In this document: piece after piece, positions 11,121 through 27,332 of the stretch
How the letters are laid out: every line of letters begins with the position of its first letter
Numbering within the stretch: position 1 is the first letter of the stretch
Virus record (IMG/VR): IMGVR_UViG_642791618_000001
Coordinates: 14,958-78,957 of that record
Reading direction: 5' to 3' (one strand)
Source of the DNA: a virus
Lineage: Duplodnaviria > Caudoviricetes
Length of the DNA: 64,000 nt
Made by a program: the position numbers and the translations under genes
Notes under the pieces: generated by a model
The model's database searches: none
What the model saw: only the letters and a program-made list of their open reading frames with translations
Told to the model about the DNA's origin: nothing

Positions 11121-12293
11121 ATGTCACAGGCGGATTCTATTGGAGCCTTAACACTCAACCTGCTGGGACGCAAGTTTCGGCAGGGGCGGCCACTATTTGC
11201 TCCCCCGGCTCAGTCGGTGCGCAGTTATGGGGCCGCGTACGCCGAAATCTGGTTCCCATCTGGGGGATGCCACTTCGACGCGAAGGGCGAATGCACAATG
11301 TGCAATTATGGGCGTTCGAGGAAGGTCAGCGCCGCGACGATGATTGAGGCGGTACGGGCGGGACTCGCCAGTCTGCCAATAATCCCAAAAACTTTATGGG
11401 TGAGTGCGTTCAATGTCTTGGACGATCGCGAAGTCTCCCCGGAAGCGCGCCGCGGTATTTTTGCCGTGCTCGAAACTACGCCGGTGGAGCGTGTGTTGCT
11501 CGAGACGCATCCGTTGAGTGTAACCACAGAGAAGATCCAAGAATTGCAGGCTTTAATTCCTGGAAAATCCCTCGGCATCGAACTTGGGATTGAAACGATG
11601 GCAGATTTCGCGCGCAAGTGGTGTATAAACAAGCAACTTACGAAACAAGAGATTCGGCACGCGATCGCGACCATCCAGGCGGCGGGCGCAATTCCCTATG
11701 TAAATCTTTTAATCGGCACGCCTTTCCTCTCGGCGGCCGAATGCCTCCGCGAGACTCGGGCTTCCATTGAGGCCCTGTTGGCGCTCGGCGTCCGCGACAT
11801 CTGTCTTTTTCCCACCCATGTCAAAGAATTCACAGTCGTCGAGCAACTTGCCCGCCTCAACCTTTACCAACCACTTCCGCTGTGGGCACTGGTAGAGTTG
11901 CTCGTAAGCGTGCCTCCCGAGACCAGATGTAGTCTTTACTACGCTTGGGTGACCGATGTCGACCATCCCGGAAAGCCGGTCTCCATCCCCCCGCGCACAG
12001 GAGCCGAGGTCTACGCCGACGTCGTCTCTTTGCTTTATGCGTACTTGGCGACGCGTGACGACGAGCAGATCGCGAGACTCGCTGCTTTACGAACGCCGTG
12101 CCGTGATGAGTTTTGCACCCGCCTCGCGCAGAAGCCCGCTTCGCCGCTGCCGCAACGCATTCTGGAAGGGGTCGAGGCACTTTGCGGAAGTGCCTTGCCT
12201 GGTCACTTCGAACGCTACAAGCAGGAAATCATTCAGGAAATTACGAATGACTGGGAAATCGCGTGCCAAGAAACGCACCATCAACTATGTTAA
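11121..12293 (+). CDS. Radical SAM protein, RaSEA/TIGR01210-like (copy 1)
   Basis: CX7CX2C motif GGCHFDAKGECTMCNYG, LLETHP, IELGIET, YVNLLIG. Confidence 0.8.
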   Translation: MSQADSIGALTLNLLGRKFRQGRPLFAPPAQSVRSYGAAYAEIWFPSGGCHFDAKGECTMCNYGRSRKVSAATMIEAVRAGLASLPIIPKTLWVSAFNVLDDREVSPEARRGIFAVLETTPVERVLLETHPLSVTTEKIQELQALIPGKSLGIELGIETMADFARKWCINKQLTKQEIRHAIATIQAAGAIPYVNLLIGTPFLSAAECLRETRASIEALLALGVRDICLFPTHVKEFTVVEQLARLNLYQPLPLWALVELLVSVPPETRCSLYYAWVTDVDHPGKPVSIPPRTGAEVYADVVSLLYAYLATRDDEQIARLAALRTPCRDEFCTRLAQKPASPLPQRILEGVEALCGSALPGHFERYKQEIIQEITNDWEIACQETHHQLC

Positions 12294-12733
12294 CAATGCG
12301 CTCAGCCGCCGAACACGAGGTTCCGACACTGCATCGGCTCGGTCTGTCGAGCTTTCAAAATCGGGATCGTTTCGATTGGGGTTGGACTGAGGAGTATTTG
12401 CAGTACCTGCTGAGCACTTCAAGCGGGTTCCTCCACGTGGCGGAGGTTGCCGGAGAACCGCAGATCGTTGGTTTGCATTGCGGTGTCTGGAACTACCCGG
12501 AATGCCGGGAGGACCAGTGCCGCTTTTATTGGCTGTACATCGACAGCCGATTTCGCCGGCGCGGAATCGGAACACAGTTGATTCAGTATTCGCTAGCGCG
12601 CGCCGCAGAAAGAGGCAAGCGGAGCGCCATCGTGGGAATATGGGGTTCGGATGAGCCGGCGAGGCAGGTCGTTGAGCACCTCGGTTTTCAGCAAGTGGAA
12701 ACGTTGAATCTGATGCGTCTCACGCTGGATTAA
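12287..12733 (+). CDS. GNAT N-acetyltransferase
   Basis: LYIDSRFRRRGIGTQL acetyl-CoA motif; C-terminal HLGFQ. Confidence 0.85.
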   Translation: MLTMRSAAEHEVPTLHRLGLSSFQNRDRFDWGWTEEYLQYLLSTSSGFLHVAEVAGEPQIVGLHCGVWNYPECREDQCRFYWLYIDSRFRRRGIGTQLIQYSLARAAERGKRSAIVGIWGSDEPARQVVEHLGFQQVETLNLMRLTLD

Positions 12734-12781
12734 ACGAGTTGGAGACAATAGGCTGCTTGTCTTCCACCAATCTTTTCCCAA

Positions 12782-13738
12782 GTGAGTTCTACATCCGGCC
12801 CATCCCCAATTTTGATCGCGGAAACCCCGCTGCACGCCGCGGAAAATTATCACCCGCCGGGAAACTTGTTTGTGAAGCTCGAGGGCGAGCAGCCTACGGG
12901 CAGCATCAAGCATCGTGCGGCAGTTTTCATGCTAGAAGCAACTCGCCGCGAACTGCAAGATGCCAAACTGGAGCTCATCGAGTCGACCTCTGGCAATCTC
13001 GGTGTTGCGCTCGGCTCGCTTGCACCTCATTACGGATACGAACTTCTCTGCATTGTGGACCAGTTGATTCCGTCCTCGAAACTCGATAGGCTGCAGCGGG
13101 TCGCAAAAATTCAGAGTGTTCCGGCGACCGGTCATTCCGATGCGCGTGCCGCCCGTATTGCTTTGGCGGAGGAGCTAAGCCATCGCCCGGGCTATTTTTG
13201 GGTCAACCAGTATGCCAGCGAATCCAACCGGCGCGCGCATCTCGAATCGACCGGGCCAGAGCTCTCGCGTCAGGTCGGAGCTTCATTGAGGTGGCTCGTC
13301 TGTTCCATCGGCTCGGGCGGCACGGCCTGCGGTTTGGCCGCTTGGTTCGCTCGCCAGAATCCCGCCGTCTCCGTGGTTGCCGTGGAACCTTGGGGGTCCA
13401 CCATTTTCGGAACGCACGCGGCACCTTACCTCTCCGTCGGAGCGGGCTTGCACGAACCGAGCGCCATCGTGAAGCGGTGGGGCAGTCCGCTGGCAGCTCA
13501 TGCGCAGGTACCGGATTCTGCGGCCATCTCCGAGGTTAAGCGTTTCCAGGAACTCGAAGGAATCGCCCTTGGCATTACCTCCGGCGCTTGTCTAGCCATC
13601 GCCCGGCAGCTGGCCGCTTCGCACCCGGGGGACATGGTCGTCGCGCTCTCGGCCGATTACGGAACGGCTTATCGCGATATCATCGACGCCGGCCAAATCA
13701 TCGACCGCTATCCCTTCCCCATAAACTCACTCAAATAG
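12782..13738 (+). CDS. PLP-dependent cysteine synthase family enzyme (SbnA-like)
   Basis: VKLEGEQPTGSIKHR (PLP lysine), ESTSGNLG, NQY, GSGGT, GITSGA. Confidence 0.85.
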   Translation: MSSTSGPSPILIAETPLHAAENYHPPGNLFVKLEGEQPTGSIKHRAAVFMLEATRRELQDAKLELIESTSGNLGVALGSLAPHYGYELLCIVDQLIPSSKLDRLQRVAKIQSVPATGHSDARAARIALAEELSHRPGYFWVNQYASESNRRAHLESTGPELSRQVGASLRWLVCSIGSGGTACGLAAWFARQNPAVSVVAVEPWGSTIFGTHAAPYLSVGAGLHEPSAIVKRWGSPLAAHAQVPDSAAISEVKRFQELEGIALGITSGACLAIARQLAASHPGDMVVALSADYGTAYRDIIDAGQIIDRYPFPINSLK

Positions 13739-16005
13739 TGCGCCCGCCGTCCACCGATCAACTTTCCGTCACGGGGGTACGACTTCACAACCTGAAGAGC
13801 GTTTCTGTCTCGATTCCACATTTTCGGCATACCGTCTGCACCGGTGTCTCGGGTTGCGGCAAGAGTTCCTTAGTTTTCGACTGCATTTACGCCCTGTGCG
13901 AATACGAGTTGCTGCAGTCGCTTTCCACATACGCTCGCGGCGCCATCCCACTGCCTGTCGTGCCGGACGTTGAGCACGCAAGCGGGTTGCTCCCACCGGT
14001 TGTAATCGATCAAGCGGACTTGGGACGAAACCCGCGGTCAACCATCGGTACTTCTACGGAAGCCTACACGTTTCTACGGCTTCTTTTCGCCCGTGCCGCC
14101 GTGCCGGTGCTCGACGCCAGTGCGTTCTCCTTCAATTCTCCCGAAGGAGCGTGTCCGGCTTGCCGTGGGCTCGGCCAGATTTTGACGCCAGATCCGGAAC
14201 GCCTTTTCGATCTCTCCAAATCGCTCGGCGAAGGCGCCATCCGACACCGCGCGTGGAAGGTTGGAGGCCGGTACTGGAACATCATCAAAGCCACAGAGTT
14301 TTTTGAGATGGACGCTCCTCTCGGTCAGTGGCCCAAGGAAAAGCTCGATCACCTTATGCACGCGGCCCCGGCCGAAGTTGCCAACCGTGTGCCCGGATTC
14401 GTTCAACGGTTTACCTTTGAGGGGGTGGTTGAACGCCTCCGCGAGCGGCTCGCCGACGATCGCGGACTCGATTCGGCGGACTACGACGCGCAGTTCTTCA
14501 CAACACAGTGGTGCGCGACCTGCGGGGGAACAAGGCTCCAGCAGAGGGCGCTGGCCTGCCGTCTGAATGGACTCAATATCGCCGATGCAGCGGGGCTTGC
14601 TGTTCCAGAACTGAAGAACTTCGTCCGCAGCCTGGAGATGAGCACCCTCGCCACCGTCGTCGATTCGCTAAGTCGCATCCTGGAAAACCTGGAGATGGTG
14701 GAACTCAGTTACCTCACCTTGGATCGCCCTATTACCACCGTTTCCGGTGGCGAAATGCAGCGGATCAAGATTGCGCGGGAGCTGGGTTCCCGTTTGATGG
14801 GCATACTCTATATTCTCGATGAGCCTTCGAGGGGTCTTCACGCCAAGAACGTCGAGGCGGTGAATTCGATAATCACCAAACTCAAAGAGCGGGGGAATAC
14901 GATCCTGAGTGTCGAGCACAACCGCGCGGTCGTGGAGTTGGCTGATAACATCGTCGAACTCGGTCCTGGCGCCGGCTCGCGGGGTGGCCAAATCACCGAG
15001 ACGGGAACTCCAGCGGATTTCAAAAACAGCAGCGGGCCGACGGGCAGGCTCCTATCTGCGGCGAAGCAGCACATCTCACCGCCCCCGCCGAAAGCGTTTA
15101 CTGAGTGGCACTTTTTTAGCGATTTGCGGCGCAATAACTTGAAGATTGAGAAACTCAAAATTCCGCGCGCGGCACTCACTTGCCTCGTGGGGGTTTCTGG
15201 CGCAGGAAAATCGTCACTCCTGGAGGAGATGCAGTTACGCGATCCCGCTAGCGTGCGCGTGGCTCAGCGGCAGATCGGAGCGTCCGTGCGCTCGAACGTC
15301 TGCACCTATCTCAATTTTTTCGACGAAATTCGCAATCTGTTCGCCAAGAAAGCAAATGCGTCCGCAAGCCTTTTCGCGTTCAACAGTGACGGCGCTTGTC
15401 CCGAGTGCGGCGGACGCGGCAGCATCACTCTCGATCTCCACTTTCTGGGCAGCGCAATGGCACCCTGTCGCACCTGCAATGGAAAACGCTACCGGGCCGA
15501 AGTCCTTGGGTATACTTGGCAGGACCGCAACATCTCCGAAGTCTTGGAACTTCCTGTAGAGGAGGCCGCCACTTTTTTCCGGGAAGGGAAGAAAATCCGC
15601 AGCGCGCTGGAGTTGCTCTTGGGATGTGGCCTGGGCTATATCCGGCTTGGGCAGTCGCTGGACACCTTTTCCGGCGGCGAACTGCAAAGAGTGAAGTTGA
15701 TTTATGGTCTGAACGATCCCACTGCTCTCTATCTGCTTGATGAGCCGTCGCGCGGGTTGCATCCGGACGACATCGAACGCATCGTCTCTTTGCTACGTAC
15801 GCTCACTGCTCGCGGCAAGACCGTGGTTGCCTCGGAACACTCGTTGGATCTGGTTGCTCGCGCAGACTGGGTGGTGGAATTGGGACCCGGGGCAGCCAAT
15901 GCCGGCGGGAAGGTGATCGCTGCTGGCACGGTTCGAGAGATCATAAGAGCGACGACAAGCATCACCGCGCAATATCTTAAGTCCTATGTCAGACCTGGAA
16001 CTTGA
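13738..16005 (+). CDS. Class II UvrA-like protein (DrrC/Ecm16 type, no UvrB-binding domain)
   Basis: Two ABC NBDs (GVSGCGKSS, SGGEMQR, LDEPS; GVSGAGKSS, SGGELQR, LDEPS) and Zn fingers. Only ~10 aa separate LLFARA from FSFNSPEGAC. About 755 aa. Confidence 0.88.
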   Translation: MRPPSTDQLSVTGVRLHNLKSVSVSIPHFRHTVCTGVSGCGKSSLVFDCIYALCEYELLQSLSTYARGAIPLPVVPDVEHASGLLPPVVIDQADLGRNPRSTIGTSTEAYTFLRLLFARAAVPVLDASAFSFNSPEGACPACRGLGQILTPDPERLFDLSKSLGEGAIRHRAWKVGGRYWNIIKATEFFEMDAPLGQWPKEKLDHLMHAAPAEVANRVPGFVQRFTFEGVVERLRERLADDRGLDSADYDAQFFTTQWCATCGGTRLQQRALACRLNGLNIADAAGLAVPELKNFVRSLEMSTLATVVDSLSRILENLEMVELSYLTLDRPITTVSGGEMQRIKIARELGSRLMGILYILDEPSRGLHAKNVEAVNSIITKLKERGNTILSVEHNRAVVELADNIVELGPGAGSRGGQITETGTPADFKNSSGPTGRLLSAAKQHISPPPPKAFTEWHFFSDLRRNNLKIEKLKIPRAALTCLVGVSGAGKSSLLEEMQLRDPASVRVAQRQIGASVRSNVCTYLNFFDEIRNLFAKKANASASLFAFNSDGACPECGGRGSITLDLHFLGSAMAPCRTCNGKRYRAEVLGYTWQDRNISEVLELPVEEAATFFREGKKIRSALELLLGCGLGYIRLGQSLDTFSGGELQRVKLIYGLNDPTALYLLDEPSRGLHPDDIERIVSLLRTLTARGKTVVASEHSLDLVARADWVVELGPGAANAGGKVIAAGTVREIIRATTSITAQYLKSYVRPGT

Positions 16006-16798
16006 GGGCTCGCCGGCAGTGGCTCTGGCCGACTACGATTCGATTGCGCGCGTGTACGATCTCTGGGCCTCTTGCGATCCAGCTTCCAAGCCGTGCTGGG
16101 ATTTCTATCGCAGGGAAGTGACGCGTCATGGTGGAGTTTGCCTCGAAGTCGGCGTGGGAACCGGTGCTGTCATGCTTGGGGCGGGTCCTACCGTCGCTCA
16201 CTATTACGGGATCGATCTTTCCCGCAGCATGCTCGCAGAACTGGAAACAAAACGGGCTAGCCTGCCTCCTCTCCCTTTCTCCTACACACTCATCCATGGC
16301 GACGTTCGACAAATCCGGCTGAGCGGCCCCCCGCCAACGCTAGCGATTGTTCCCTTTCGCACTGTGGGGCATTTTCTGACTGCAGACTCTAGGATAGCTC
16401 TGTTGCGCCACTTACGGGAAATCTGTGCGCCGGGAGCACGCTGCATCCTCGATCACTACAAGTTTAACCTGAAGTGGGCTCAGCAGCACGATCGCGTTAC
16501 CCGATGGATGGGCGAGGGAACCATCAATGGCCAAACTTTCGTACTCTCGGACACGTATGCTTATGATTTCGCGCGCCGCGAGATGGAATGTCTGCTCTGC
16601 GTGGAGGAGATCGCCAGGCATGGGACGGTGGTGAACAAGCGATACAGCGCGTTTCGTTTTTCGTGGCTCGAAGACGACGAAGTCTATCGCTACGCGGAAA
16701 TAGCGGGGTGGCGGGTCGAGCAACGGTGGGGTGACTTTGAGTATTCCGATTTCTCCGGCGACGCGAAAGACCAGGTCTGGCTCTTACGTGCGCCATGA
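15986..16798 (+). CDS. Class I SAM-dependent methyltransferase
   Basis: LEVGVGTG, GIDLSRSML, HGDVR. Confidence 0.88.
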   Translation: MSDLELEGSPAVALADYDSIARVYDLWASCDPASKPCWDFYRREVTRHGGVCLEVGVGTGAVMLGAGPTVAHYYGIDLSRSMLAELETKRASLPPLPFSYTLIHGDVRQIRLSGPPPTLAIVPFRTVGHFLTADSRIALLRHLREICAPGARCILDHYKFNLKWAQQHDRVTRWMGEGTINGQTFVLSDTYAYDFARREMECLLCVEEIARHGTVVNKRYSAFRFSWLEDDEVYRYAEIAGWRVEQRWGDFEYSDFSGDAKDQVWLLRAP

Positions 16799-17706
16799 GG
16801 CCGAACGATTGCTACTCGCTCGCCCGTACATCGGCCCGGAGTTCCACATTCCTGTCCCTGCTAGCGCATGCAACTGGCTTGCCTGGAGCAGCCGTTTGGA
16901 CAGGATACCTGGCTTCGTTGAGTCTCGATCTGGATCTCCCTCGGCGCTGGCTTGCCTCCTGCGTGCCCTATCTCGATCTACTTTTACAGGCCATGGCCTA
17001 CATGCCTTCCGGCGCGTCCGTTGGCGAGGTCGAGTCGGGGCAGATCGATGATTTGGCCCGTGGCTTTTCGACCGGCGAACACCTCATTCTCGGTCCCTTG
17101 GACAGAAGTTCCTTGTGCGGACGACCGGCGCCTTTGCTATGGGAAGGCGCGCCAACTTTTGTGCAAATCATAGGGTGCGAAGAAAATACGGGCGCGATGA
17201 TCCTTCGCCTACCGGGGACGCATTCGCTTTGCAGCTTGTCCGCAGAGGCATTGGTAGCGCCGCCGGGAATGCGGAGCGCGTGGTTTGCTGCCACCCCGCT
17301 TGGCCTACAGGCTTGCGAAGAGCACCTCCGACGCCTTCTGTCCTCCTGCCGTTTGGAGGTAGTTTGCCTTGCGGATCTGGCACGGTGGATGCGTGCGCTG
17401 TGCGAACGAATTGCCGGGTGTCCGCTAACCTCGACGGAAAGGCATTGCCTTCGGGCTGCTCTTCGGGCTCTACAGGAGTGTCTGTGCGATGCTACTCTGT
17501 TTGCGCAGCGGCTCCAAAAGGTGGCGCAGTTTCTGCCGCCTGCCGAGCACGCATTCCTCATCGAACGGGCTGTATCAGCGATGCACCTGCTCGCACGCGC
17601 TCCGTCCGTCCTTGTAGGCTTCGACGTAAATCCAGCGTCCTGGCTGGAGGAGCTTGGGCGCGTGCTGGCGACGACGACGGTGGTGAGACTGGCACCCAAA
17701 CAATAA
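16795..17706 (+). CDS. Hypothetical protein, diverged BtrH/papain-like paralog
   Basis: LILGPLDRSSL aligns with LVGPLDMGLL of 23259-24194. N-terminal NDCY; catalytic His not evident. Confidence 0.4.
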   Translation: MRPNDCYSLARTSARSSTFLSLLAHATGLPGAAVWTGYLASLSLDLDLPRRWLASCVPYLDLLLQAMAYMPSGASVGEVESGQIDDLARGFSTGEHLILGPLDRSSLCGRPAPLLWEGAPTFVQIIGCEENTGAMILRLPGTHSLCSLSAEALVAPPGMRSAWFAATPLGLQACEEHLRRLLSSCRLEVVCLADLARWMRALCERIAGCPLTSTERHCLRAALRALQECLCDATLFAQRLQKVAQFLPPAEHAFLIERAVSAMHLLARAPSVLVGFDVNPASWLEELGRVLATTTVVRLAPKQ

Positions 17707-17707
17707 T

Positions 17708-18325
17708 ATGCCAATTTCCCATGCAAACGTCCTGTTCGGACTGGATTGCGCCAGCGCACCTGTGCGCGGTTCCGTTCCGGCCGAAAACCTGCTGTTGAAG
17801 CTCAATCCTGCGCTGCTTCCGGAAAGCGAACCTGCGGCCATAATTATCGCTGCCGAGGCACCGATACTGTCCGATGCGACAATCTCCTACCAGACACTCG
17901 TGCATCTGCGGCAGCCCCGCGCTTCCTCACTTGTTTTTCTCACGAGCGCCGGTGAAACGCTCGCGATGGCGCTCCTCGCTGCGAGCCTCACACTTGATGG
18001 TGCCGAAGCCGGTGCTTTTGTGCTGGCCTACATTCTTGAAAGCGTCTCCCCCGCTCCTGTCGGCGCGCGGGATTACGAGGCGTTCGCTTTCCTGATCCAT
18101 CGGGTTCCCCCGCCGGACTGCGCCGTGTTGGTGGCGGAACTTAAGGAAGGCACGTCCAAGAGTTTCGCCCGTGAGGTTCTTTCCGCGGCGGCACTGCAGC
18201 GGATTGTCGAGCATGCCCGTGCGGCTCGGCCTCTCAGGCAAACCACGCTGCTAATCGGTCGCGCTCCCGGGTTGGACGGGGAGCAAAAATGTCATTTGCT
18301 GCGCCTACATGAGAAAGAAATGTGA
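17708..18325 (+). CDS. Hypothetical protein, possibly a ketosynthase/chain-length-factor-like fragment
   Basis: SAGETLAMALLAASLTLDG...FVLAYILE weakly resembles the KS N-terminal helix region. Coupled within the operon. Confidence 0.35.
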   Translation: MPISHANVLFGLDCASAPVRGSVPAENLLLKLNPALLPESEPAAIIIAAEAPILSDATISYQTLVHLRQPRASSLVFLTSAGETLAMALLAASLTLDGAEAGAFVLAYILESVSPAPVGARDYEAFAFLIHRVPPPDCAVLVAELKEGTSKSFAREVLSAAALQRIVEHARAARPLRQTTLLIGRAPGLDGEQKCHLLRLHEKEM

Positions 18326-19490
18326 AGCTTTCTGGCAACGATGGGCAGCCGAGCCGGGGAACTTGTCTGCCACGCTCGAAACGCCGAGGTATTTCTATTC
18401 GGGCGAACTGCTCACCCTCGCTTGGCACGCCCTGCACTCGAGTCTGCCCGCGGACGCGCAACTGCTGTACTCGCTGAAGGCCAACCCGCATCCGACGATC
18501 GTACGCTACTTTGCCGAGCACGGTGCGCTTTTCGATGTGGCCAGCCGTGGGGAAATGGAACTGCTCCTGGCGACCCAGGGCTCGCTGCAGCGGGCGGTAT
18601 GGATCAGCCCGTGCAAAAGGGAAGCAGACTATCTCTGGGCGGTGCAACACGGCCTAGGCGCATCCGTGATCGATTCCAGAGAGGAAATAGGCACCGTGCG
18701 CCGGGTTGCGGCGACCCAGCCAGACACCATGCCCAGCTATCTGCTACGCGTTCAGCGACGCGCGGCTTCCGCGGGGACTTCCCTCTGGGCGGACTCGCAG
18801 TTCGGTGTCACTTTGGATGAGGCAATCGAGTTTACGCACACCCTGCGCCGGGACGGGATCCAGATCGCCGGGTTGCACGGCTATTTTGCCTCAAACCTTT
18901 TCGCCGAACAGGAGATTGCCCAAAATACCCAGGACTTGATGGCGCAGGCGCTCACCTGGCAGGCGTCTACTGGCACCTCGATGCGTGTCCTTGACGTCGG
19001 AGGAGGGTTTGGCTGGCCGCTTGGCGTTGAGGACGGCGAGCTTTCGTTACCGAGACTCCGGGACTGCCTAGCCCCCCTGGCCGCGGAGTTTTCCCCAGGC
19101 ACTGCATTGTGGTTCGAATCGGGCCGTTTTCTCACCGCCGGCGCGGGTGTGCTCGTGCTCACCGTGATGAGCGTAAAAGAGCGCCCCGGCACGACCTCCG
19201 TCGTGCTAGACGGCGGAATGAATATCTTCGGCCTTCCCTCGATGCGCCTGGGATTTCGTCCGCTGACGGTGATTCTTCTCGCGCGCGAGTGGGCTGGTCC
19301 CCTGCAGCCGCACACGCTTTTCGGCCCCTTGTGCACCCCGGGGGACAAATTTTGCGAGAAAGTGCTGCTGCCACCGCTTAAGGCCGGTGACCGCTTGGCT
19401 ATTCTGCATGCGGGTGCTTACGGAGCCACGGCGGGGCGCTCTTCATTTCTCTCTTTCCCGGACGCGCACGAAACTGTACTTGCCGGTTGA
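18309..19490 (+). CDS. Fold-type III PLP decarboxylase (LysA/BtrK/SbnH family)
   Basis: YSLKANPH, FDVASRGE, LDVGGGFG, ESGRF, GPLCTPGD, GAYG. Confidence 0.88.
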   Translation: MRKKCEAFWQRWAAEPGNLSATLETPRYFYSGELLTLAWHALHSSLPADAQLLYSLKANPHPTIVRYFAEHGALFDVASRGEMELLLATQGSLQRAVWISPCKREADYLWAVQHGLGASVIDSREEIGTVRRVAATQPDTMPSYLLRVQRRAASAGTSLWADSQFGVTLDEAIEFTHTLRRDGIQIAGLHGYFASNLFAEQEIAQNTQDLMAQALTWQASTGTSMRVLDVGGGFGWPLGVEDGELSLPRLRDCLAPLAAEFSPGTALWFESGRFLTAGAGVLVLTVMSVKERPGTTSVVLDGGMNIFGLPSMRLGFRPLTVILLAREWAGPLQPHTLFGPLCTPGDKFCEKVLLPPLKAGDRLAILHAGAYGATAGRSSFLSFPDAHETVLAG

Positions 19491-19499: not shown

Positions 19500-19757
19500 A
19501 TGAACGAAGTCACCGAAATCGAAGAGTTGAAGCGGCTGCTTGCGCAACTTGCCCCAGGGAATCAACCCGCGATCCTCTCCCTTGCGCCCGAAGACAAGCT
19601 GCCGTTGGACTCGATGGGAATGGTTAGTTTTGCGGTCGCCTTAGAAGATTATTATGGGCTCAGATTCCGGCCCGATGTCCACGATCTCGTTTCAATTTTT
19701 TCCAACCTGCGGTCGCTTGACGAATTCATCGCTCGCGAACGCCAGGCCGCCACATGA
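19500..19757 (+). CDS. Stand-alone acyl/peptidyl carrier protein
   Basis: 85 aa and acidic; LDSMGMV phosphopantetheine site; ALEDYYGLRF. Confidence 0.85.
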   Translation: MNEVTEIEELKRLLAQLAPGNQPAILSLAPEDKLPLDSMGMVSFAVALEDYYGLRFRPDVHDLVSIFSNLRSLDEFIARERQAAT

Positions 19758-20932
19758 GAGACACCAATCCTTTTCTCTCCGCGGTAATGCGGAAGGTGCG
19801 AAGCGGCCGTCCCCGGCTAGAGACCGCCGAACCTTTCTTCACGCGGGTCGAGCCGGTCCCCCGGGGAAACTACGTCGAGATTTGGTTCCTGACCTCGGGT
19901 TGCACTTGGGATGCCCGCGGCGGATGCACCATGTGCAATTATGGCGCCGGTCCTCAAAACATTGCGCCACTGTTCATGCAGCAAGCCGTGGAGCAGGCGC
20001 TCGCGGTGCTTCCAGTCGCTCCTGCCGAGCTCATGGTATCGCCGTCCGGTGGCATGCTGGATGACCGCGAAGTTCCGCCGAAAGCTCGCCAAGGAATTTA
20101 CGCCGCGATGGCGAAGAGCACTGCCGATCTGCTGCTGATCGAGACGCGCTCGGAGACGGCTACCGAGCGCCATCTCGACGAGTACCGCGCGACCTTTCCA
20201 CACCGATCCCTAGCCATTGAGTTTGGGTTGGAATCGGCCTCTTCGTGGATCTCGACGTTCTGTGTGAATAAGGGCGCCGAGCCGGACCGCTTTGCCGCCG
20301 CCGCCGCCGCCGCACATCGGCGCGAGATCGGCGTCTATGCAAACGTCTGTATCGGCACGGCCTTTCTCTCGGCGCGTGAGTCTGTTGAAGACGCGGTGCA
20401 GACCGCGCGGTGGGCCTTCGCGCACGGAGGCGAGCGGGTGGTCCTTTTCCCTCTGCACATCAAGCGATTCACACTTCTGGAGGTCTTGCACCATGCCGGC
20501 CTATATCCGCGCGTCTCTCTCTGGTCGCTGGTAGAATGCCTGCGCCGCTTGGGTTCGGAAAACAGTCACCGGGTCGAGATCGCGTGGTACAAATCGTACT
20601 ACACGCAAAAATCGAAGATGACCTTCTCCCCTACGACCTGCGACATCTGCCTGCCGACCGTCCTGACGCTCATGGACACCTATCGCCAAACGCAGGATTT
20701 CGCCGTTATCGAGAAGCTCGCAGCCTTTTCCTGCGCTTGCCACGAGGAATGGAGAGCCGCCATCGAAGCGGAGCCTTCGTCGTCGCTGCCGGAACGCGTC
20801 CTGCGCTCGTACGAATTTCTAGACGATCACCTCGGCGTTGGTGCGCGTGATGAACTTGCGAGCGTTTCGCGTCGGCTTTTTGTAGAAGAACCCTTCACCT
20901 ATGCTACTTGGAAGGCCCATGATCTCGCTTGA
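19754..20932 (+). CDS. Radical SAM protein, RaSEA/TIGR01210-like (copy 2)
   Basis: CX7CX2C motif GCTWDARGGCTMCNYG, SPSGGMLDDREVP, LIETRSE, IEFGLES. Confidence 0.82.
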   Translation: MRDTNPFLSAVMRKVRSGRPRLETAEPFFTRVEPVPRGNYVEIWFLTSGCTWDARGGCTMCNYGAGPQNIAPLFMQQAVEQALAVLPVAPAELMVSPSGGMLDDREVPPKARQGIYAAMAKSTADLLLIETRSETATERHLDEYRATFPHRSLAIEFGLESASSWISTFCVNKGAEPDRFAAAAAAAHRREIGVYANVCIGTAFLSARESVEDAVQTARWAFAHGGERVVLFPLHIKRFTLLEVLHHAGLYPRVSLWSLVECLRRLGSENSHRVEIAWYKSYYTQKSKMTFSPTTCDICLPTVLTLMDTYRQTQDFAVIEKLAAFSCACHEEWRAAIEAEPSSSLPERVLRSYEFLDDHLGVGARDELASVSRRLFVEEPFTYATWKAHDLA

Positions 20933-21791
20933 AGTCGCGCAGAATTTTCTCCGCCGGAACGTTCCTTCCGGCAGACCTATGCTTGTCTTCCTTTCCGGCG
21001 GAGTCGACTCCGATGTCGTGGCCCGTCTGGCTGTCGCCACCTTCGGCGCCGCGCGCGTCGTCGGCGCCACCTGCTTGCAAGCCGCGCAAGATCCCGCTCA
21101 TCCAGAGAATGCCGCGCGGCTCGCCCGCACTTTGGGCATCGAATACGCGCAATTGAACTTGGGGCAGATGCCAGCCGAACTCGCCGCCGAGCTGGCGCGG
21201 GCCTCTCCCCGATTCGACGATGGGGAAAACGGCTGGCTGATCGAGGCGAGAGCCAAGTGCGCTTTGCGAACCTCCATCGCCGCACTCTACCACGATCGGG
21301 GCTACTACATCTTAGGGTGTGGCAATCGCACAGAATTGCGCTTGGGGTTCTTCATGCCACTTGGGGACGGAATTTGCCACGCCGCCCCAATCCTGCACTT
21401 GTTCAAAACCGAGGTGTATGTCCTTGCCCAGGCATTGGGCACCGACTCCCAAGTGATCGAGCAACCGCCGTCTGCGGGTTTTTGGCCCGGTCAGTCGGAC
21501 TTGGAGGATATCGCCTACTGGATGCTCCATGGTGGCCCCATCGTCCGGCCCGTGCATTTTTCGGAAGAAGATATCGCGGAGGTCGAACGGATGCGCCGCG
21601 TCCTGAGCTTTGCAGGGCTCGACGCGGCCCTTAAGGAATACGAGCGCGGCTCTGCTCCCGCCTTTGCGGCGTCCGTCTCAGGTCTGGAGCTCAAGATCGT
21701 GGAACGTGTTTACCGCGTCGCCGAGGCAGCGCGGGCGCTCAAGCTAATTCCCATGTGTGCGTCGCTTCTCTCGGAAGCTGCGCCGACATGA
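20919..21791 (+). CDS. Diverged NH3-dependent NAD synthetase-like (AANH/PP-loop) enzyme
   Basis: LSGGVDS, GCGNRTE, GDG, LFKTEV, PPSAGFWPGQSD. Substrate-site motifs are altered relative to NadE. Confidence 0.78.
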   Translation: MISLEVAQNFLRRNVPSGRPMLVFLSGGVDSDVVARLAVATFGAARVVGATCLQAAQDPAHPENAARLARTLGIEYAQLNLGQMPAELAAELARASPRFDDGENGWLIEARAKCALRTSIAALYHDRGYYILGCGNRTELRLGFFMPLGDGICHAAPILHLFKTEVYVLAQALGTDSQVIEQPPSAGFWPGQSDLEDIAYWMLHGGPIVRPVHFSEEDIAEVERMRRVLSFAGLDAALKEYERGSAPAFAASVSGLELKIVERVYRVAEAARALKLIPMCASLLSEAAPT

Positions 21792-23284
21792 AGACGCTGG
21801 CGCTCCTTCTCCGAGCCGCGAGCGCTGACGCCGGATCCGCCGTAGCCCTGCTTTCGGACCGGCATCGGCTCTCTTATGCAGATACGTGGCGGCAAGTGGA
21901 GCAACTCGGTTGCGAGTTGCAGGCTGCGGGACTGACGCCTGGGAAGCGTGTAATCGCGATCACATCCCTGACCGTCGAGACTGTGCTCATGTTGGTCGCC
22001 ATTTCGTGGACTGGCGCCATCATCATTCCGGCCGTCGCCTCGGGGCCTGGAGCCGATCTGAACGGCGTTAGGCAGTTCAGTCCTTGTCATTTGATCGGCA
22101 CAGCCGAGCATCTCGAACCCTTCGATGTAGAGCTTTGTGCAGAATTCAGGGTGGGTGAAAAGCGTTACTTCCTAGGCCGGTGGGAAGACGACCAAGATGG
22201 TGATGCACCGACCCGCGACGAAACCATCTTCCTCACCTCGGGCACCACGGATGGCCCGCTGGGTGTGGTCTGTTCGCAAGCCCAAATCGCTTTCTGCCAA
22301 GCGGCAATCCAACAACGGCTCCGTTACGTTCCACAAGATCGCGTGTTGATCGGCGGCCCACTTTCATTCGATTACCACTACTATCAACTGCTGCTCGCCT
22401 TTGCCGCGCGCGCGACGTTAGTCGTCTGCGATCAGGTGCAAAACCCCCTGGCAATGGCCGACCGAATTCTCCGGATGAAAGTCACCGTCCTGCCGTTGAT
22501 CCCATACAGCTTCCGCCTGCTGCTAAAGTCGCGCATGCTGGAAAGGGGCGACTATTCCTGCGTGCGCCTGCTCTCTGCCACCGGAGAGGTGTGGCCCAAG
22601 CGCGAAATCGAACTCCTTGCGCAAGCGTTTCCCGCTGCCAGCGTATTTCCAATGTATGGGCTCACGGAGTGCAAGCGGGTCAGTATCCTCGATCAGCGGC
22701 TCAATCCGGAGTTACTCGGGGCGGTGGGCTTTCCGCTCACAGGGACACGAGTGCAGATTTTTGACCCCAACCACAGCGCATTGTCCACTGGCGACGTTGG
22801 CGAGATCGCCGTTGAAGGACCTCATTTGGCTGATGGGTACTTTCAGCGTCCCGAGGCCACATGCAGACGTTTTCATCAGCACCCGGATGGGAGACGCTTC
22901 CTGCTCACGGGCGACCAAGGCTACCTGGACGAGCGGGGCGCTCTTTGGTTCGTCGGGCGTGATACCCAACTGATCAAATACCGGGGCATTCGCACCTCCG
23001 CGGCGGCGATTGAAACCGCCTTCCTCCAGTGCCCGAATGTCCAGCGCGCCGTCGCGATGAATGTTCTCACGCGGTCCGGAGAAAAGGTCGCCGTGATGAT
23101 CGAACTGGCCGATCAGAGCGCTGCCGGCGACACGAAGATCGCGGAGACTGTGCGAAGTCTGTGGCCCTTACACGGGCAGCCGGATTACTTTGAATTCGGC
23201 TTCATTCCTCTCCTTGCCAATGGCAAACCAGCCCGCGCCAAGGTTGCCACTTTACTCCATGAACGGTGCACCCGAATCGAATGA
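21788..23284 (+). CDS. AMP-forming adenylation enzyme (ANL superfamily)
   Basis: LTSGTTDGP, YGLTEC, LTGDQG, GRDTQLIKYRG, LANGK. Confidence 0.88.
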   Translation: MKTLALLLRAASADAGSAVALLSDRHRLSYADTWRQVEQLGCELQAAGLTPGKRVIAITSLTVETVLMLVAISWTGAIIIPAVASGPGADLNGVRQFSPCHLIGTAEHLEPFDVELCAEFRVGEKRYFLGRWEDDQDGDAPTRDETIFLTSGTTDGPLGVVCSQAQIAFCQAAIQQRLRYVPQDRVLIGGPLSFDYHYYQLLLAFAARATLVVCDQVQNPLAMADRILRMKVTVLPLIPYSFRLLLKSRMLERGDYSCVRLLSATGEVWPKREIELLAQAFPAASVFPMYGLTECKRVSILDQRLNPELLGAVGFPLTGTRVQIFDPNHSALSTGDVGEIAVEGPHLADGYFQRPEATCRRFHQHPDGRRFLLTGDQGYLDERGALWFVGRDTQLIKYRGIRTSAAAIETAFLQCPNVQRAVAMNVLTRSGEKVAVMIELADQSAAGDTKIAETVRSLWPLHGQPDYFEFGFIPLLANGKPARAKVATLLHERCTRIE

Positions 23285-24194
23285 ACGGAACCCGTGGATC
23301 GAAGGAGCTCTGTCGCTCCGTCAACTCTCGTATGGATGCCACGTTCTGGCAGCCTTTCAGCTCATGCCGGAACTCGAGGAATTGCTGAGCGCTACCGAAC
23401 TAGCCGGTCTTACGGGACTCTGTTTTGGTTTGTCTCACGTCGACAGAGATCGCGCGCGTCAACTCGTTCCTAGTGTTTCTCCTCTTCCGGCATTGTCCAG
23501 CGCCTTGGGTGCCTTGGGAATTGCCTCGTCGCTGAAACACTGGGGCGAACAGGAGGGCGATGCCGCGTACCGCGATCTGGCCGTGCAGACCGAACGCCGT
23601 CCCACGTTGGTCGGTCCGTTGGATATGGGACTGCTTTTCCACAATCCGTCGGCGCTGGTTTACCGTGGTCTTGATCACATGCTCGTCGCGCTCGAGGTGC
23701 ACGAACACGAGATACTCGTAACCGACAGTGAAGGATTTCCCGCCGTCGTCATTCCACGGGAAGAATTCTTGACGGCGTGGCGGGCTATCTCCGTTCCTGA
23801 ATCGCATCGCTCTTTCAATAGTCTATGCGTCGACAGAGTTTCGCCGTTTAGGGATGAGGAGCGTGAACGTGCGCACCTCCGGGAGGCGCTGCTTGCGCAG
23901 CGCCCTGCTTCCAGTGCGCACGTCGCGGCCATAATACAGCGGATCAGCGCCAGCCAATCTGAGGACGAGGGCAGTGGATTGGAACTCAATCTGGCGGCTC
24001 TCTTGGAGAGAGCGTCATGCACGTTGCAGATTACCTATTATTTCTCCGACGGAGATTGGGCTACCATCTCTGAAGCTCTGCTCGAATTGGTCGCGACGCT
24101 CGGCGGCATTCTCGGCCCGCCGCTGGCTCCAGGGCGCCGCATGGCCGCCCTCAAGGGTGTGGCGCGCTATTTCGACCGCCTTTGCGCAGTATAA
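23259..24194 (+). CDS. BtrH/C39-like papain-fold protein (putative carrier-protein transacylase)
   Basis: N-terminal Cys (YGCH), GPLDMG, DHMLVA (His), VTDSEGFP (Asp), EFLTAW. Start codon uncertain. Confidence 0.55.
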   Translation: MNGAPESNERNPWIEGALSLRQLSYGCHVLAAFQLMPELEELLSATELAGLTGLCFGLSHVDRDRARQLVPSVSPLPALSSALGALGIASSLKHWGEQEGDAAYRDLAVQTERRPTLVGPLDMGLLFHNPSALVYRGLDHMLVALEVHEHEILVTDSEGFPAVVIPREEFLTAWRAISVPESHRSFNSLCVDRVSPFRDEERERAHLREALLAQRPASSAHVAAIIQRISASQSEDEGSGLELNLAALLERASCTLQITYYFSDGDWATISEALLELVATLGGILGPPLAPGRRMAALKGVARYFDRLCAV

Positions 24195-24197
24195 CCC

Positions 24198-25133
24198 ATG
24201 CAGATTATTGCGATCACCTACGCCTTGGGTTCAGAGCAAATTCCCGTTGAAAAGCTCGGACTTCAGGCCGCACTTCCTCCGGCGGCGATTGCTCAAATGC
24301 TGGACAATGGTTTGCAGACGGTTCCCGTTTGGCCTGGTGAAAAGCGCCCCCTGGCTTTGCAAAGCTTTATCGCCAGCTTTGGACGCGAACAATGCGAAGC
24401 GCTTCATTCCCTCAAGGCGGTGATCGTGGCCAAAACTCACTTGGGAGCGCACACGTTGCGAGCCGAGGATGCTCGCGATTGGTTTTCCAGCCGGGAGGGC
24501 CATCCGGCGCTCGCAATGGAGGTTACGGGCCAGCCCTGCGCCATCCTGCACAGTGGCGTCGAACTCGCACGAAGGCTTCTTGCGCGATCGAATGGAGAAG
24601 AACCCAGCTGCGTCTTGCTGGTCGGTTGCGACGTTGCGGAAAACGCTGCAGAGCGGTGCTATTTTGGAAGCGCCATGGGGGATGCCTGTGTAGCGATGCT
24701 ATTGAGCATGCGGGCGGGAGGACCAGCCATACTGGGATCCCACGTCGAAACGAACATTGTAGCGCCCCTCGGAGAGCAAAGCGATCCGAACGAGATTGCT
24801 CGATTCCGCCAGCATAATGTATTTTGGATTCGCGAGGCCATTTTCAGAGGGTTGGCGAAAGCGGATCGCTCGCTTGATACCCACTGCATCATACTTCCTC
24901 ACACTCCAAACAGGCACATCGTCGAAGCCATCCGCCAGTCACTGGCTCTGCCGCACGACCGCATCATTTCGGAGTTCATGGCAACGACTGGTCATTGCTG
25001 CTCGAACGACTCATTCATCACCTTTGCCCGCCTCGTGGCCCAAGGTAGACTCCAGAAATACTCCACAGCAGTGCTTGTGAATGGCGGATTTGGTGGTACT
25101 CGTGGCGTGACGGTGATCGAGCCCTCATCATGA
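24198..25133 (+). CDS. KAS III (FabH)-like acyltransferase/condensing enzyme
   Basis: GQPCA (Cys), GDACVAMLL, LPHTPN (His), GHCCSND (His at the usual Asn position), GGFGG. Confidence 0.75.
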   Translation: MQIIAITYALGSEQIPVEKLGLQAALPPAAIAQMLDNGLQTVPVWPGEKRPLALQSFIASFGREQCEALHSLKAVIVAKTHLGAHTLRAEDARDWFSSREGHPALAMEVTGQPCAILHSGVELARRLLARSNGEEPSCVLLVGCDVAENAAERCYFGSAMGDACVAMLLSMRAGGPAILGSHVETNIVAPLGEQSDPNEIARFRQHNVFWIREAIFRGLAKADRSLDTHCIILPHTPNRHIVEAIRQSLALPHDRIISEFMATTGHCCSNDSFITFARLVAQGRLQKYSTAVLVNGGFGGTRGVTVIEPSS

Positions 25134-26071
25134 AGCTTCCGCTCAACATCCACCTCTACATCACCCCGTATTGCCCGGTGCCATGCCGGCACTGCTATTA
25201 TGAGGCGTTGCGGCCCGGGGCACCTTACAGTGGACAGCTTTCGGCAGAGCAAATGGCCAGCGTGATTGTGGCGCTGGATACGGAATACGACATGGACGTT
25301 CATTTGGAGGGAGGGGAAGCATTCCTGAGCGACGACCTGGCCGAGCTTCTGGCACGCGTGCCGACGGACACATGGCAAAAGATCACCATCACAACCAGCG
25401 GCGCCCTAAAGCCGAAATTCGACGTCAAACTCCTGCGCTCGGTCGGAGATTTGCGCGTGTCGGTGGAAGGAATGAACGCCGAGCAGCATTTCACCTTACG
25501 AGGAATGCAGATCGATCGCACCGAGAGCTTCATGCTCGATCTCCAGCGCGATGGCGTTCGCTTTTCCATCCGCTCGACCCTGTTCACGGAGAACGTGCAG
25601 CATTGGATGGGGCTTGCTCAATACGCCCGTCAATTGGGAGCTGCCCAATTGTCCTGGTATGAACTCCAACCGGTGGGCCGCGCGAACCAAACGGCCGAGC
25701 ATGGCTTCCTGACCCCGCAACAGATCGATAGTTTTTTGGCCTCGCTCAGTGCGCAGAGAAGTTCGGACCTTCCGCTCCTGTGTCGCTTTCAGTTTCCTGA
25801 GCGGCGCGTGGAAGCCGTCGGCCAACGAACACGCTCATTGAGCGCCTCGGGTTGGCACGTGCGAAGCCTGCCCGATATCCCTAGCCTCACGATCAACCCC
25901 AATGGAGATATCGGCGTCAGTCCCTGGAAGATTACTGCTCAACATGTAGGCGACCGGTTCGGAAACGTGAGGGACTCGGGATGGTTGGAAAAGGTCCGAA
26001 AAGCTTACGGGGAAGGCAATCTACATGACGCCTCGCCGAGCACCTCTAGGCTTCGCATCAGTTCCGATTAA
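25130..26071 (+). CDS. Radical SAM protein (CX3CX2C)
   Basis: CPVPCRHC, LEGGE, VSVEG. The C-terminal INPNGDI segment is SPASM/twitch-like but lacks the Cys residues. Confidence 0.85.
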   Translation: MKLPLNIHLYITPYCPVPCRHCYYEALRPGAPYSGQLSAEQMASVIVALDTEYDMDVHLEGGEAFLSDDLAELLARVPTDTWQKITITTSGALKPKFDVKLLRSVGDLRVSVEGMNAEQHFTLRGMQIDRTESFMLDLQRDGVRFSIRSTLFTENVQHWMGLAQYARQLGAAQLSWYELQPVGRANQTAEHGFLTPQQIDSFLASLSAQRSSDLPLLCRFQFPERRVEAVGQRTRSLSASGWHVRSLPDIPSLTINPNGDIGVSPWKITAQHVGDRFGNVRDSGWLEKVRKAYGEGNLHDASPSTSRLRISSD

Positions 26072-26093
26072 GACCTGCGCAAACCAAGATGGC

Positions 26094-26582
26094 GTGAGCG
26101 GAAACAGTAAAATAGACATCCCGTTATTGAATCGGGTCACGTCCCCGGGTTCCGTCCGACTCGCCGACAGAGAGGAGGCAGACGTGTGTGTCGAATTCTT
26201 TGCTCGTCACCTCACTGAGGACAATGTTTTCTCTCGGGAATTCCTGTGTCCGATGGGAGTGAGAGCGGCAGTGACCCGCGGGCAAGTCATCGTTTGCAAG
26301 GTCGGTTTGGAAGTAATTGCGGCAGTCCGGTTTTACTGTCGCAAACGAACTGCCTGCGTTTCAATTTACCAATTTGCGGTGAACCCCACCTGGCGCGGCC
26401 ATCGGCTTTCGCTAGAGATGATAAAGGCGGTGCCTCGGGGTTTGCGCATTTCATGTTGCTCGCCATCGTCCTCCTTAAATGAGTATTACGTCAAAACGGG
26501 GTGGACGTTGCGCCGCCGAAGCTGTCAGAAGAACGAGTGGACATTGCCATGCAGCAGCGCAGAGCAATCACCACCCCTTTGA
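26094..26582 (+). CDS. GNAT-like acetyltransferase
   Basis: IYQFAVNPTWRGHRL, NEYYVKTGW. Start uncertain. Confidence 0.6.
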   Translation: MSGNSKIDIPLLNRVTSPGSVRLADREEADVCVEFFARHLTEDNVFSREFLCPMGVRAAVTRGQVIVCKVGLEVIAAVRFYCRKRTACVSIYQFAVNPTWRGHRLSLEMIKAVPRGLRISCCSPSSSLNEYYVKTGWTLRRRSCQKNEWTLPCSSAEQSPPL

Positions 26583-26699
26583 GTGGTTTCCAAAGCGCCG
26601 GGCTCCGCATGCGGGCGGACGAATCCGCGCGACCCTCTTTGGCGCGCAAACCTCGGAGTGACCCGCCGCGCCGAGATCGCGAGTTTCAGCTCGTTACCG

Positions 26700-27332
26700 C
26701 TAAAACAAGTGAATGCCGTGCTGGGTGCGTCCGTTGGTAAATTGCCGTGAATTATCTTTCCGCACCACCGGGCAGTAGACTTTGGTTAAAAACTTTGACT
26801 CATCTAATGCAGGCACCATTGAGCCAGCCCCTCCCCCTGCAATCAAAGAGCCATATATTTCGAGCCAGTCTCCGCCTGAGTAGGCGAACTCAGTGCTCGG
26901 AAGCTGGTCGTGGAGCAACGTCTCTACAGAAGGCCGGATGTTCGCATACGGACCCTCCACTACAAGCTCCGCATATTGTCCTCCCTGCGTATATGTTAGT
27001 GCAAGCGCAGACTCGCGCCCCGCACCATCCTTGTCGAGAATCTCTCGCAGAGCAGAGAACGGGGATGCATTGTTCTGCAAGAACAGACACAACGAAAACG
27101 CGGTCAAGGCTGAGTGATCTCCCCTCCACTCGCCGCGCCATCTTGCGCCGTGTGTGATAAGTTGCCCCGGTGCCAATTCACAACCGAGGAGCGAAGTTCT
27201 TACGCCAGTCCTTTGCTCCCAATTCACAAAGGACGCATGAAGATCTCTCATTTCAGAATCCGGCGACCGCCCGCTCGTAAAGTGGGTTGGGATTGACGCA
27301 ATACGCAACGAGGGCAATTCTAGAATTTGCAT
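26700..27332 (-). CDS. GyrI-like small-molecule-binding protein
   Basis: GGQYAELVVEGPYANI, LEIY, TKVYCPV. Confidence 0.75.
   Translation of the reverse strand: MQILELPSLRIASIPTHFTSGRSPDSEMRDLHASFVNWEQRTGVRTSLLGCELAPGQLITHGARWRGEWRGDHSALTAFSLCLFLQNNASPFSALREILDKDGAGRESALALTYTQGGQYAELVVEGPYANIRPSVETLLHDQLPSTEFAYSGGDWLEIYGSLIAGGGAGSMVPALDESKFLTKVYCPVVRKDNSRQFTNGRTQHGIHLF

Follow-up and report, generated by a model that had tools for sequence, protein, structure and literature searches.

A foreign, probable carrier-protein biosynthetic operon in a verrucomicrobial prophage, with a possible DNA-directed product

Introduction

What does a temperate phage do with a whole set of biosynthetic enzymes? 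The question is raised by a 64,000-nucleotide stretch of the Caudoviricetes record IMGVR_UViG_642791618_000001 (positions 14,958 to 78,957; hereafter the window), in which 16 plus-strand open reading frames (ORFs; 11121-26582, with gaps of no more than 79 nt where they do not overlap) are followed by a convergent ORF (26700-27332). The original prediction, drawn from the letters of the window, had described this locus as 16 coupled genes with a convergent GyrI-like gene, an arrangement that our ORF map reproduces. The window corresponds to G000:C60:207981-271980 and lies wholly inside a 95-kb prophage, the host of which we take to be Chthoniobacter flavus Ellin428, a verrucomicrobial soil isolate and cultured type strain. 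We present evidence that the cluster is located in this prophage and is of foreign origin, both of which we hold to be nearly certain, and that it likely encodes a thiotemplated small-molecule pathway. Taken as a whole, the cargo is probably an intact operon for a carrier-protein pathway that is independent of non-ribosomal peptide synthetases (NRPSs) and leads to a DNA-directed metabolite.

Results

The cluster is an insert in an integrated temperate phage

The element carrying the cluster is an integrated temperate phage, since attachment (att) repeats at a tRNA gene, an integrase, and virion and replication modules are all present. A 21-bp direct repeat with exactly two copies in the genome (C60:177137 and C60:272097) brackets C60:177137-272117 (95 kb). 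The copy on the right forms the 3′ end of a tRNA-Glu gene, and this attR site with its tRNA lies ~100 bp outside the right end of the window, adjoined by a tyrosine integrase gene (62762-64000, minus strand, extending past the window end; PF00589 match at C60:271066-271308). Some 42 kb separate the cluster from attL, and some 37 kb separate it from attR. Comparison with PHROGs identified terminase, portal, protease and major head genes in the element and no tail genes, together with a rightward replication operon (Sak4, exonuclease, helicase and primase) and a leftward operon encoding AAA and clamp-loader-like proteins, an ATP-dependent ligase and a glucosyltransferase-like protein. The cluster had been placed at the meeting point of these two operons, and both the PHROGs matches and the related prophages agree with that position. 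By coordinate arithmetic, the Logan contig SRR8552821_341 (L006, 96,254 bp) reaches ~61 bp beyond attL on the left and ~1.2 kb beyond attR on the right; that it breaks off so near attL could point to a different strain or to a subpopulation in which the element is excised or the site empty.

The flanking genes are collinear with those in the prophages of a genome of the same genus (G022) and a genome of the same family (G153), at 45-92% amino acid identity, and both flanks are kept in these sister prophages at 72-80% DNA identity. DNA homology to the G022 and G153 prophages ends at positions 11027 and 11015 and restarts at 27774 and 27775, respectively, which delimits an inserted segment of 16.7 kb (11028-27773) that contains the whole cluster and is absent from the related prophages. 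The left backbone flank is the last gene of the rightward replication operon (10468-10827, plus strand; phrog_503, E 4e-30), the product of which is 73-75% identical to its counterparts in the G022, G010 and G153 prophages and 58-65% identical to those in IMG/VR phages. The right backbone flank is the first gene of the leftward operon (27768-28391, minus strand; 80% amino acid identity in the G022 and G153 prophages), and in both sister prophages its homolog comes directly after the phrog_503 gene. As the original prediction had proposed, prophages lacking the insert could thus be compared: the same slot holds 746 bases in G022 and 513 bases in G153, unrelated to the insert. Because the sister prophages hold different short cargo there, the point between the convergent operons is a variable slot and, in this lineage of phages, a cargo-exchange hot spot. 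Each of the two slots (L038 12081-12826 in G022; G153:C10 ~26945-27457) contains one small ORF.

Gene 27768-28391 has a second copy of 75 nt of its start region at the right margin of the insert (27489-27563; repeat family D2, also a secondary G153 match), ~900 bp from its partner at about 28387-28459; this copy is probably a recombination scar, the footprint of cargo capture. Transposon-like terminal repeats were not found flanking the insert. The mean GC content at third codon positions (GC3) is 0.64 for the cluster genes versus 0.75 for the flanking phage genes (Mann-Whitney p = 2e-6), putting numbers to a less GC3-biased codon usage that had been suspected by eye. An assembly chimera at either junction was ruled out, because an independently assembled Logan contig from run SRR8552821 covers window positions 9754-30935 at 99.99% identity and crosses both junctions. 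A homolog of g10, the signature gene of the cluster family, was present in none of the five genomes with related prophages and in none of 60 relatives. The insert reads as a foreign 16.7-kb cargo ("moron") in a temperate phage.

The operon probably encodes a carrier-protein pathway

The genes were numbered g01 to g17 from left to right, all on the plus strand except g17. Nearly all of the domain calls made in the original prediction were recovered with Pfam and NCBIfam; the second GNAT stayed marginal, and the two BtrH-like proteins (g06 and g13) and the GyrI-like protein (g17) match no Pfam model and were supported by comparison with a protein atlas or between profiles. PDB sequence searches gave no match for g06, g07, g10, g14 or g17, nor for the g13-family profile.

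The carrier in the predicted pathway is a stand-alone acyl carrier protein (ACP), encoded by g09 (19500-19757) and recognised by its LDSMG motif and an NCBIfam phosphopantetheine-binding match (E 6e-7; the Pfam match is weak, E 0.017). The host genome encodes two phosphopantetheinyl transferases that could activate it. The product of g12 (21788-23284; AMP-binding, E 8e-45) is a stand-alone adenylation enzyme of the VinN or beta-aminoacyl-ACP synthetase type, with 3wvn as its best PDB match (E 3e-48), which we take to be VinN of vicenistatin biosynthesis, followed by the beta-aminoacyl-ACP synthetases 7dq5 and 6m01. The product of g08 (18309-19490; Orn_Arg_deC_N, E 1e-34) is a fold-III pyridoxal phosphate (PLP) decarboxylase whose best PDB matches, 2j66 (BtrK) and 7ru7 (E 7e-31), rank above diaminopimelate (DAP) decarboxylases; BtrK is an L-glutamyl-ACP decarboxylase.

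The acyl group would be handed on by g13 (23259-24194), a BtrH/CtaG-like papain-fold transacylase assigned from atlas features and structure, with a Cys27-His140-Asp156 triad. It resembles atlas clusters carrying BtrH_N, DUF4872 and YobF_C (feature score 0.97, structural TM score 0.67-0.80), gives no Pfam BtrH_N match even at E 10, and in a single-sequence PDB search matched AziU3 and Azi29 at E 0.1 only, too weak to use. C27, H140 and D156 are invariant among its orthologs, and in Nocardia and on contig L013 a g13 homolog is fused to that of g12. The closthioamide transacylase CtaG has a proven triad of C11, H128 and D144 (PMC7183216). Counted by residue positions and not from a direct sequence alignment of the two proteins, the triad spacing is 113 + 16 residues in g13 versus 117 + 16 in CtaG. 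The product of g06 (16795-17706) is a degenerate paralog: its family aligns with the g13 family over 300 columns in hhalign (98.5% probability, E 3e-15), and it retains no conserved Cys or His at the triad positions. Relatives of g06 numbered three sequences among 1.8 billion representatives. The two BtrH-like proteins thus form a pair of one putatively active and one degenerate member.

Three radical S-adenosylmethionine (SAM) enzymes are encoded. Both g01 (11121-12293; TIGR01210, E 2.9e-33; CX7CX2C at residues 50-61; 59% identical to its ortholog on contig L010) and g10 (19754-20932; TIGR01210, E 4e-42) are RaSEA-like, with 115 and 144 bits, respectively, against an equivalog cut-off of 212, and no ArcS/TGT-like gene was found in the cluster with Pfam or NCBIfam. 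Because of these scores below the cut-off and the missing ArcS partner, we classify g01 and g10 by sequence as relatives of RaSEA and not as RaSEA itself. In g10, C50/C58/C61 are invariant, plus C296/C299/C327/C329. The third enzyme, g15 (25130-26071; Radical_SAM, E 4e-9; AhbD/NirJ-like in NCBIfam), has a CX3CX2C motif and four cysteines in total, none of them of the SPASM or auxiliary-cluster kind.

The product of g11 (20919-21791; NAD_synthase, E 8e-32) is a NadE-like PP-loop ATP pyrophosphatase in which SGGxDSD is invariant and C114 is the sole invariant cysteine among g11 and eight orthologs. This lone cysteine sits in a conserved AR-x-K-C-x-L-R-T stretch, and the N-terminal PP-loop region matches the sacrificial sulfur transferase LarE weakly (E 6e-7). 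Amidation in the manner of NadE would be the simplest reading, and LarE-like sulfur transfer from the single cysteine a speculative alternative. The AANH thioamide synthetase CtaC carries a three-cysteine [4Fe-4S] motif (PMC6772006); thioamide formation as in closthioamide was rejected for g11, which lacks the CtaC Fe-S motif and has only the one invariant cysteine.

The remaining enzymes are an SbnA/CysK-like fold-II PLP enzyme (g03, 12812-13738; PALP, E 2e-47; TIGR03945, the SbnA family, E 3e-53, under the cut-off), a β-ketoacyl-ACP synthase III (KAS III)-like enzyme (g14, 24198-25133; ACP_syn_III_C, E 2e-11; conserved Cys114, His235 and Asn270), a SAM-dependent methyltransferase (g05, 15986-16798; Methyltransf_25, E 2e-8; orthologs in L010-L013), a GNAT N-acetyltransferase (g02, 12287-12733; Pfam Acetyltransf_1, E 3e-12), found in the closest subfamily (L010) only, and a probable second GNAT (g16, 26025-26582; Pfam Acetyltransf_7, E 0.03, with a weak Acetyltransf_1 match of its L010 ortholog). 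AlphaFold2 models of g17 and g07 were unusable (mean predicted local distance difference test of 33 from a single sequence and 36 from two sequences, respectively).

The chance that this cluster is silent or decaying cargo without present function appears very slim to us. It is true that g06 and g07 evolve fast and that a consensus scan found no promoter-like site upstream of the cluster, but the scan lacks calibration for Verrucomicrobia, none of the 17 closely coupled reading frames is broken, and the catalytic motifs are kept across the cluster (CX7CX2C, CX3CX2C, PLP lysines, PP-loop and catalytic triads). No Rfam RNA elements were found in 9500-28500, and the region upstream of g01 shows no conservation with L010.

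A class II UvrA points to DNA as a possible target

Among these biosynthetic genes lies g04 (13738-16005), encoding a 755-aa UvrA-like protein (PDB UvrA, E 9e-158), compared with about 960 aa for UvrA. Residues 7-123 and 127-501 of g04 align to residues 24-140 and 284-677 of UvrA, leaving UvrA 141-283, the UvrB-binding region, unmatched; because this region is absent, g04 is assigned to class II UvrA. Both ATPase modules and the zinc and DNA-binding regions are retained. The host carries its own full-length UvrA (about 980 aa, on C62), which makes g04 a distinct, additional and dedicated copy. Elsewhere in the host genome, an 1867-aa open frame (C46:86639-91333, minus strand) is built from a tandem pair of UvrA-like units. 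In characterised clusters, class II UvrA protects against DNA-binding drugs (Ecm16: PMC9328131, PMC10192343; uvrA-guided mining: PMC10413001). As a dedicated UvrA, g04 therefore predicts a DNA-binding or DNA-damaging metabolite, and by this analogy we lean towards a DNA-directed product.

The cluster belongs to a rare family in non-phage settings

Among 5.8 billion protein clusters, a search with g10 yielded 158 homologs (E ≤ 1e-10), not one of which bears an informative name. The closest relative of the cluster is on metagenome contig L010, where the full set of 16 genes is found in identical order (32-67% amino acid identity), in unrelated, non-phage flanks; because of this synteny in unrelated flanks, g01-g16 appear to move as one block. 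Within the block g06 and g07 diverge fast, at 32-34% identity to L010 versus 50-67% for the other genes. A core of eight genes (g03, g04, g10, g11, g12, g13, g14 and g15) recurs in two Nocardia genomes, one Lachnospiraceae genome, one Clostridium genome and three further contigs, usually joined by an ACP, a decarboxylase and a methyltransferase gene; g03 is conserved in all eight related loci and g04 in seven of the eight. The ACP gene lies immediately upstream of the g10 ortholog in L004, L005, L010, L011, L012 and L013, that is, at every locus where both were called, and the g15 ortholog adjoins the g03 ortholog in most related loci.

Related loci also encode tailoring proteins, namely a copper amine oxidase, a 2-oxoglutarate (2OG) oxygenase, a serine hydroxymethyltransferase (SHMT)-like enzyme, a U32 protein and a GT2 protein, with MarR regulators nearby, so that the family appears to occupy settings like those of biosynthetic clusters and unlike those of phages. 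Neither a single-protein nor a profile query with g10 retrieved a relative from 2.9 million viral contigs (IMG/VR), and megablast found no DNA match in 50,697 phage records, a set from which the record of the window itself may be missing. Taken together, the cluster family is rare, uncharacterised and spread over at least four phyla.

Evidence against a DNA-directed metabolite and alternative readings

Several observations weigh against a pathway to a DNA-directed metabolite. Neither an exporter nor a regulator was found in the operon with Pfam or NCBIfam. No family could be assigned to g07 (17708-18325), which has no match in Pfam, NCBIfam, PDB or PADLOC and the L010 counterpart as its only relative (34% identity over 68 aa). 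The only characterised RaSEA substrate that we know of is a nucleic-acid base. The convergent gene g17 (26700-27332, minus strand), inside the insert, encodes a GyrI-like small-molecule-binding protein according to the protein atlas only (score 0.91 and TM 0.62-0.64 against GyrI-like/Cass2 clusters), and it is absent from every related locus, with an unrelated gene at the same position in L010; homologs are also missing from 150 genomes of the host family. A GyrI-like protein is thus present as predicted, and its proposed role as a pointer to the target did not hold up: because g17 is absent from every other family member, including the syntenic L010, it is weak evidence for the target, and its candidacy as the core resistance gene was rejected. 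Class II UvrA, a core gene of the family, is the stronger clue.

The UvrA itself supplies the last of these observations. In Lachnospiraceae and Clostridium, a single 1522-aa frame in low-GC DNA joins it to a pair of RaSEA-like radical SAM domains (L004:2180-6748 and L005:2904-7472, both plus strand), and in L012 a 744-aa UvrA gene overlaps a gene for a 759-aa double radical SAM protein. Such fusion or overlap would be unusual for a pure resistance gene. A search for longer UvrA forms revealed no fusion beyond this one lineage.

It is here that a different kind of system has to be considered, one acting on DNA, in which UvrA would scan and the RaSEA-like radical SAM enzymes and carrier module would write or remove an amino-acid-derived base modification, marking phage or host DNA or repairing adducts. 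RaSEA is known to act on a modified base in tRNA, and the fused UvrA of L004 and L005, the translational coupling in L012, the core status of UvrA, the operon without an exporter and the DNA helicase or RarA-type genes that adjoin some family members are all consistent with such a system, as are GmrSD, a DNA methylase and a glucosyltransferase-like gene on the same prophage. We nevertheless consider it distinctly unlikely, since the adenylation, ACP, decarboxylase, transacylase and KAS III set is typical of secondary metabolism, the family is mostly chromosomal and stands beside MarR regulators and tailoring oxidases, no relative occurs among the viral contigs, related phages are without the cluster, and the UvrA fusion is confined to one lineage. 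A base-exchange or base-transferase, glycosylase or nuclease component was not found either. Phage DNA hypermodification finds no recurrence in phages (IMG/VR, the 50,697 phage records and related phages), and among known anti-phage defence systems PADLOC gave no match beyond a generic ABC ATPase (g04) and a weak viperin-like radical SAM (g15).

A more specific form of this idea, which we regard as a long shot, is that UvrA and the RaSEA-like radical SAM enzymes, whose genes are paired across the family and fused in Clostridia, make up a new DNA-directed radical enzyme machine, in which UvrA would sense a lesion or DNA shape and the radical chemistry would install a carrier-derived modification or cut out a drug adduct. 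If this were true, the phage would carry a DNA-writing or DNA-repair system and not merely a toxin with its antidote.

Another alternative accepts a small molecule as the product and gives it a target other than DNA, as in signalling, metal binding or action on the cell envelope, with the UvrA-like ATPase in another role. The g12 and g08 proteins also resemble an exosortase-A-associated ligase and decarboxylase pair of unknown function (TIGR03098, E 7e-54; TIGR03099, E 2e-52), SbnA-type enzymes are known from siderophore precursor supply (TIGR03945), and the GyrI-like gene is lineage-specific, all of which would fit. This reading is nonetheless unlikely in our view, since the class II UvrAs that have been characterised guard against DNA-binding drugs (PMC9328131, PMC10192343, PMC10413001), and g04 keeps its ATPase modules and its zinc and DNA-binding regions and is conserved in the family as much as the enzymes are. 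A thiotemplated pathway to a DNA-directed metabolite, with g04 as its resistance protein, therefore remains the reading that we prefer.

Comparison with characterised pathways

The original prediction compared the cluster with the closthioamide and butirosin pathways. The shared logic stands in the carrier protein, the BtrK-like decarboxylase and the CtaG-like triad; membership of either pathway does not. The closthioamide pathway of Ruminiclostridium cellulolyticum (CtaC-CtaJ and CtaZ) likewise uses a stand-alone carrier protein, a decarboxylase of the Orn/DAP/Arg family acting on a tethered amino acid, a papain-fold Cys-His-Asp transacylase with near-equal triad spacing and a PP-loop (AANH) enzyme, and has a GyrI-like protein beside the cluster. 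However, its loader CtaD is an ATP-grasp enzyme, whereas the loader here is an adenylation enzyme and no ATP-grasp domain occurs in the 17 proteins; the NadE-like protein has one invariant cysteine, in contrast to CtaC of the three-Cys Fe-S TtuA type; a chorismate lyase is missing; and the GyrI-like gene is not conserved in the family. Conversely, three radical SAM enzymes, an SbnA-like enzyme, a KAS III-like enzyme and class II UvrA are extra here.

The side chain of butirosin, 4-amino-2-hydroxybutyrate (AHBA; BtrI/BtrJ/BtrK/BtrH), is made by decarboxylation of an ACP-tethered amino acid and handed on by a BtrH-type transferase, and BtrK is the closest solved relative of g08, which would here depend on the carrier as well. 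The ATP-grasp enzyme BtrJ, the monooxygenase BtrO/BtrV, BtrG and aminoglycoside genes, on the other hand, were not found in the cluster with Pfam or NCBIfam. The beta-amino-acid starter module of the macrolactam antibiotic vicenistatin (VinN, VinL and VinO) shares the combination of a VinN-type adenylation enzyme, a stand-alone ACP and a PLP decarboxylase, and VinO acts on an ACP-bound substrate. It differs in that no polyketide synthase (PKS) and no VinM-, VinK- or VinJ-type partners were identified here. With no ATP-grasp loader, Fe-S AANH enzyme, PKS or aminoglycoside genes, the cluster appears to follow the same logic as these three pathways without being a member of any of them.

A UvrA lacking the UvrB-binding domain and encoded in a biosynthetic cluster is also seen in DrrC and Ecm16; the present cluster, however, is neither polyketide nor NRPS, and some relatives have UvrA-radical SAM fusions. 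As lysogenic-conversion cargo, the closest precedent is sublancin on Bacillus subtilis SPbeta, a temperate phage with a biosynthetic cluster (10.1101/2020.10.01.322628). Prophage bacteriocin clusters differ from the 16-enzyme, non-ribosomal, carrier-protein pathway described here, which has no precursor peptide. The gene combination had been put forward as unlike that of any characterised cluster, and indeed none with this gene set was found in the open-access literature. The view that such clusters are unusual on temperate phages agrees with a survey of prophage clusters in which 99.3% were bacteriocins, with few small exceptions (10.1101/2020.10.01.322628).

Other genes of the prophage

The left arm of the prophage (C60:177137-207980), outside the window, encodes a large serine recombinase, a ParB/RepB-like protein, GmrSD-HNH, a Ser/Thr kinase with TPR, a HerA-type ATPase and an N6 DNA methylase. 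This arm resembles a defence island and includes large ORFs (1028, 539, 457 and 449 aa) without a Pfam match. In the leftward operon, a gene like those of the T4 beta-glucosyl-hydroxymethylcytosine alpha-glucosyltransferase family (phrog_842; 36767-37813), one for a full ATP-dependent DNA ligase (34548-35429) and one for a short ligase-like protein (the flanking gene 27768-28391) were noted, all on the minus strand. The presence of a glucosyltransferase-like gene and GmrSD on one prophage hints at glycosylation of phage DNA. Of 150 genomes from the host family, 19 encode a relative of the primase, as do 14 IMG/VR contigs.

Discussion

Beyond the domain identities, we infer which substrates are used, how the steps follow one another, what is made and what it acts on. 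In the pathway that we propose, g12 would load an acidic amino acid, most likely Asp or Glu and via the side-chain carboxylate, onto the ACP g09, and g08 would then strip the alpha-carboxylate to give a beta- or gamma-aminoacyl-S-ACP. This tethered unit would be modified by the radical SAM enzyme g10, for which the ACP gene directly preceding g10 suggests action on a tethered intermediate. The acyl group would next be transferred from the ACP to an amine by g13, with the predicted catalytically dead g06 as a possible partner, and g14 may catalyse another condensation or acyl transfer. The building block that g03 and g15 supply would probably be a beta-substituted alanine. Finishing steps could include amidation of a carboxylate by g11, methylation by g05 and acetylation by g02 and g16. 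The producer's DNA would be shielded from the product by g04, as DrrC and Ecm16 do, and the lysogen would deploy the metabolite against competitors or incoming phages.

NRPS-independent thiotemplated clusters and biosynthetic clusters encoded by prophages are both already known; what is new is a 16-enzyme carrier-protein cluster on a prophage. The locus offers a clean and datable case of a temperate phage capturing a whole multi-enzyme non-ribosomal pathway, with insert-free sister prophages for comparison. Since surveyed prophage clusters are almost only bacteriocins, it widens the range of cargo that phages are known to move between bacteria. The enzyme mix is itself unusual, bringing together RaSEA-like radical SAM enzymes, an SbnA-like enzyme, a NadE-like enzyme and an active/dead transacylase pair, and the built-in class II UvrA marks the family as a lead for a new DNA-directed compound. 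The presumed host belongs to a soil phylum that has received little study, and as it is a type strain available in culture, these predictions are directly testable.

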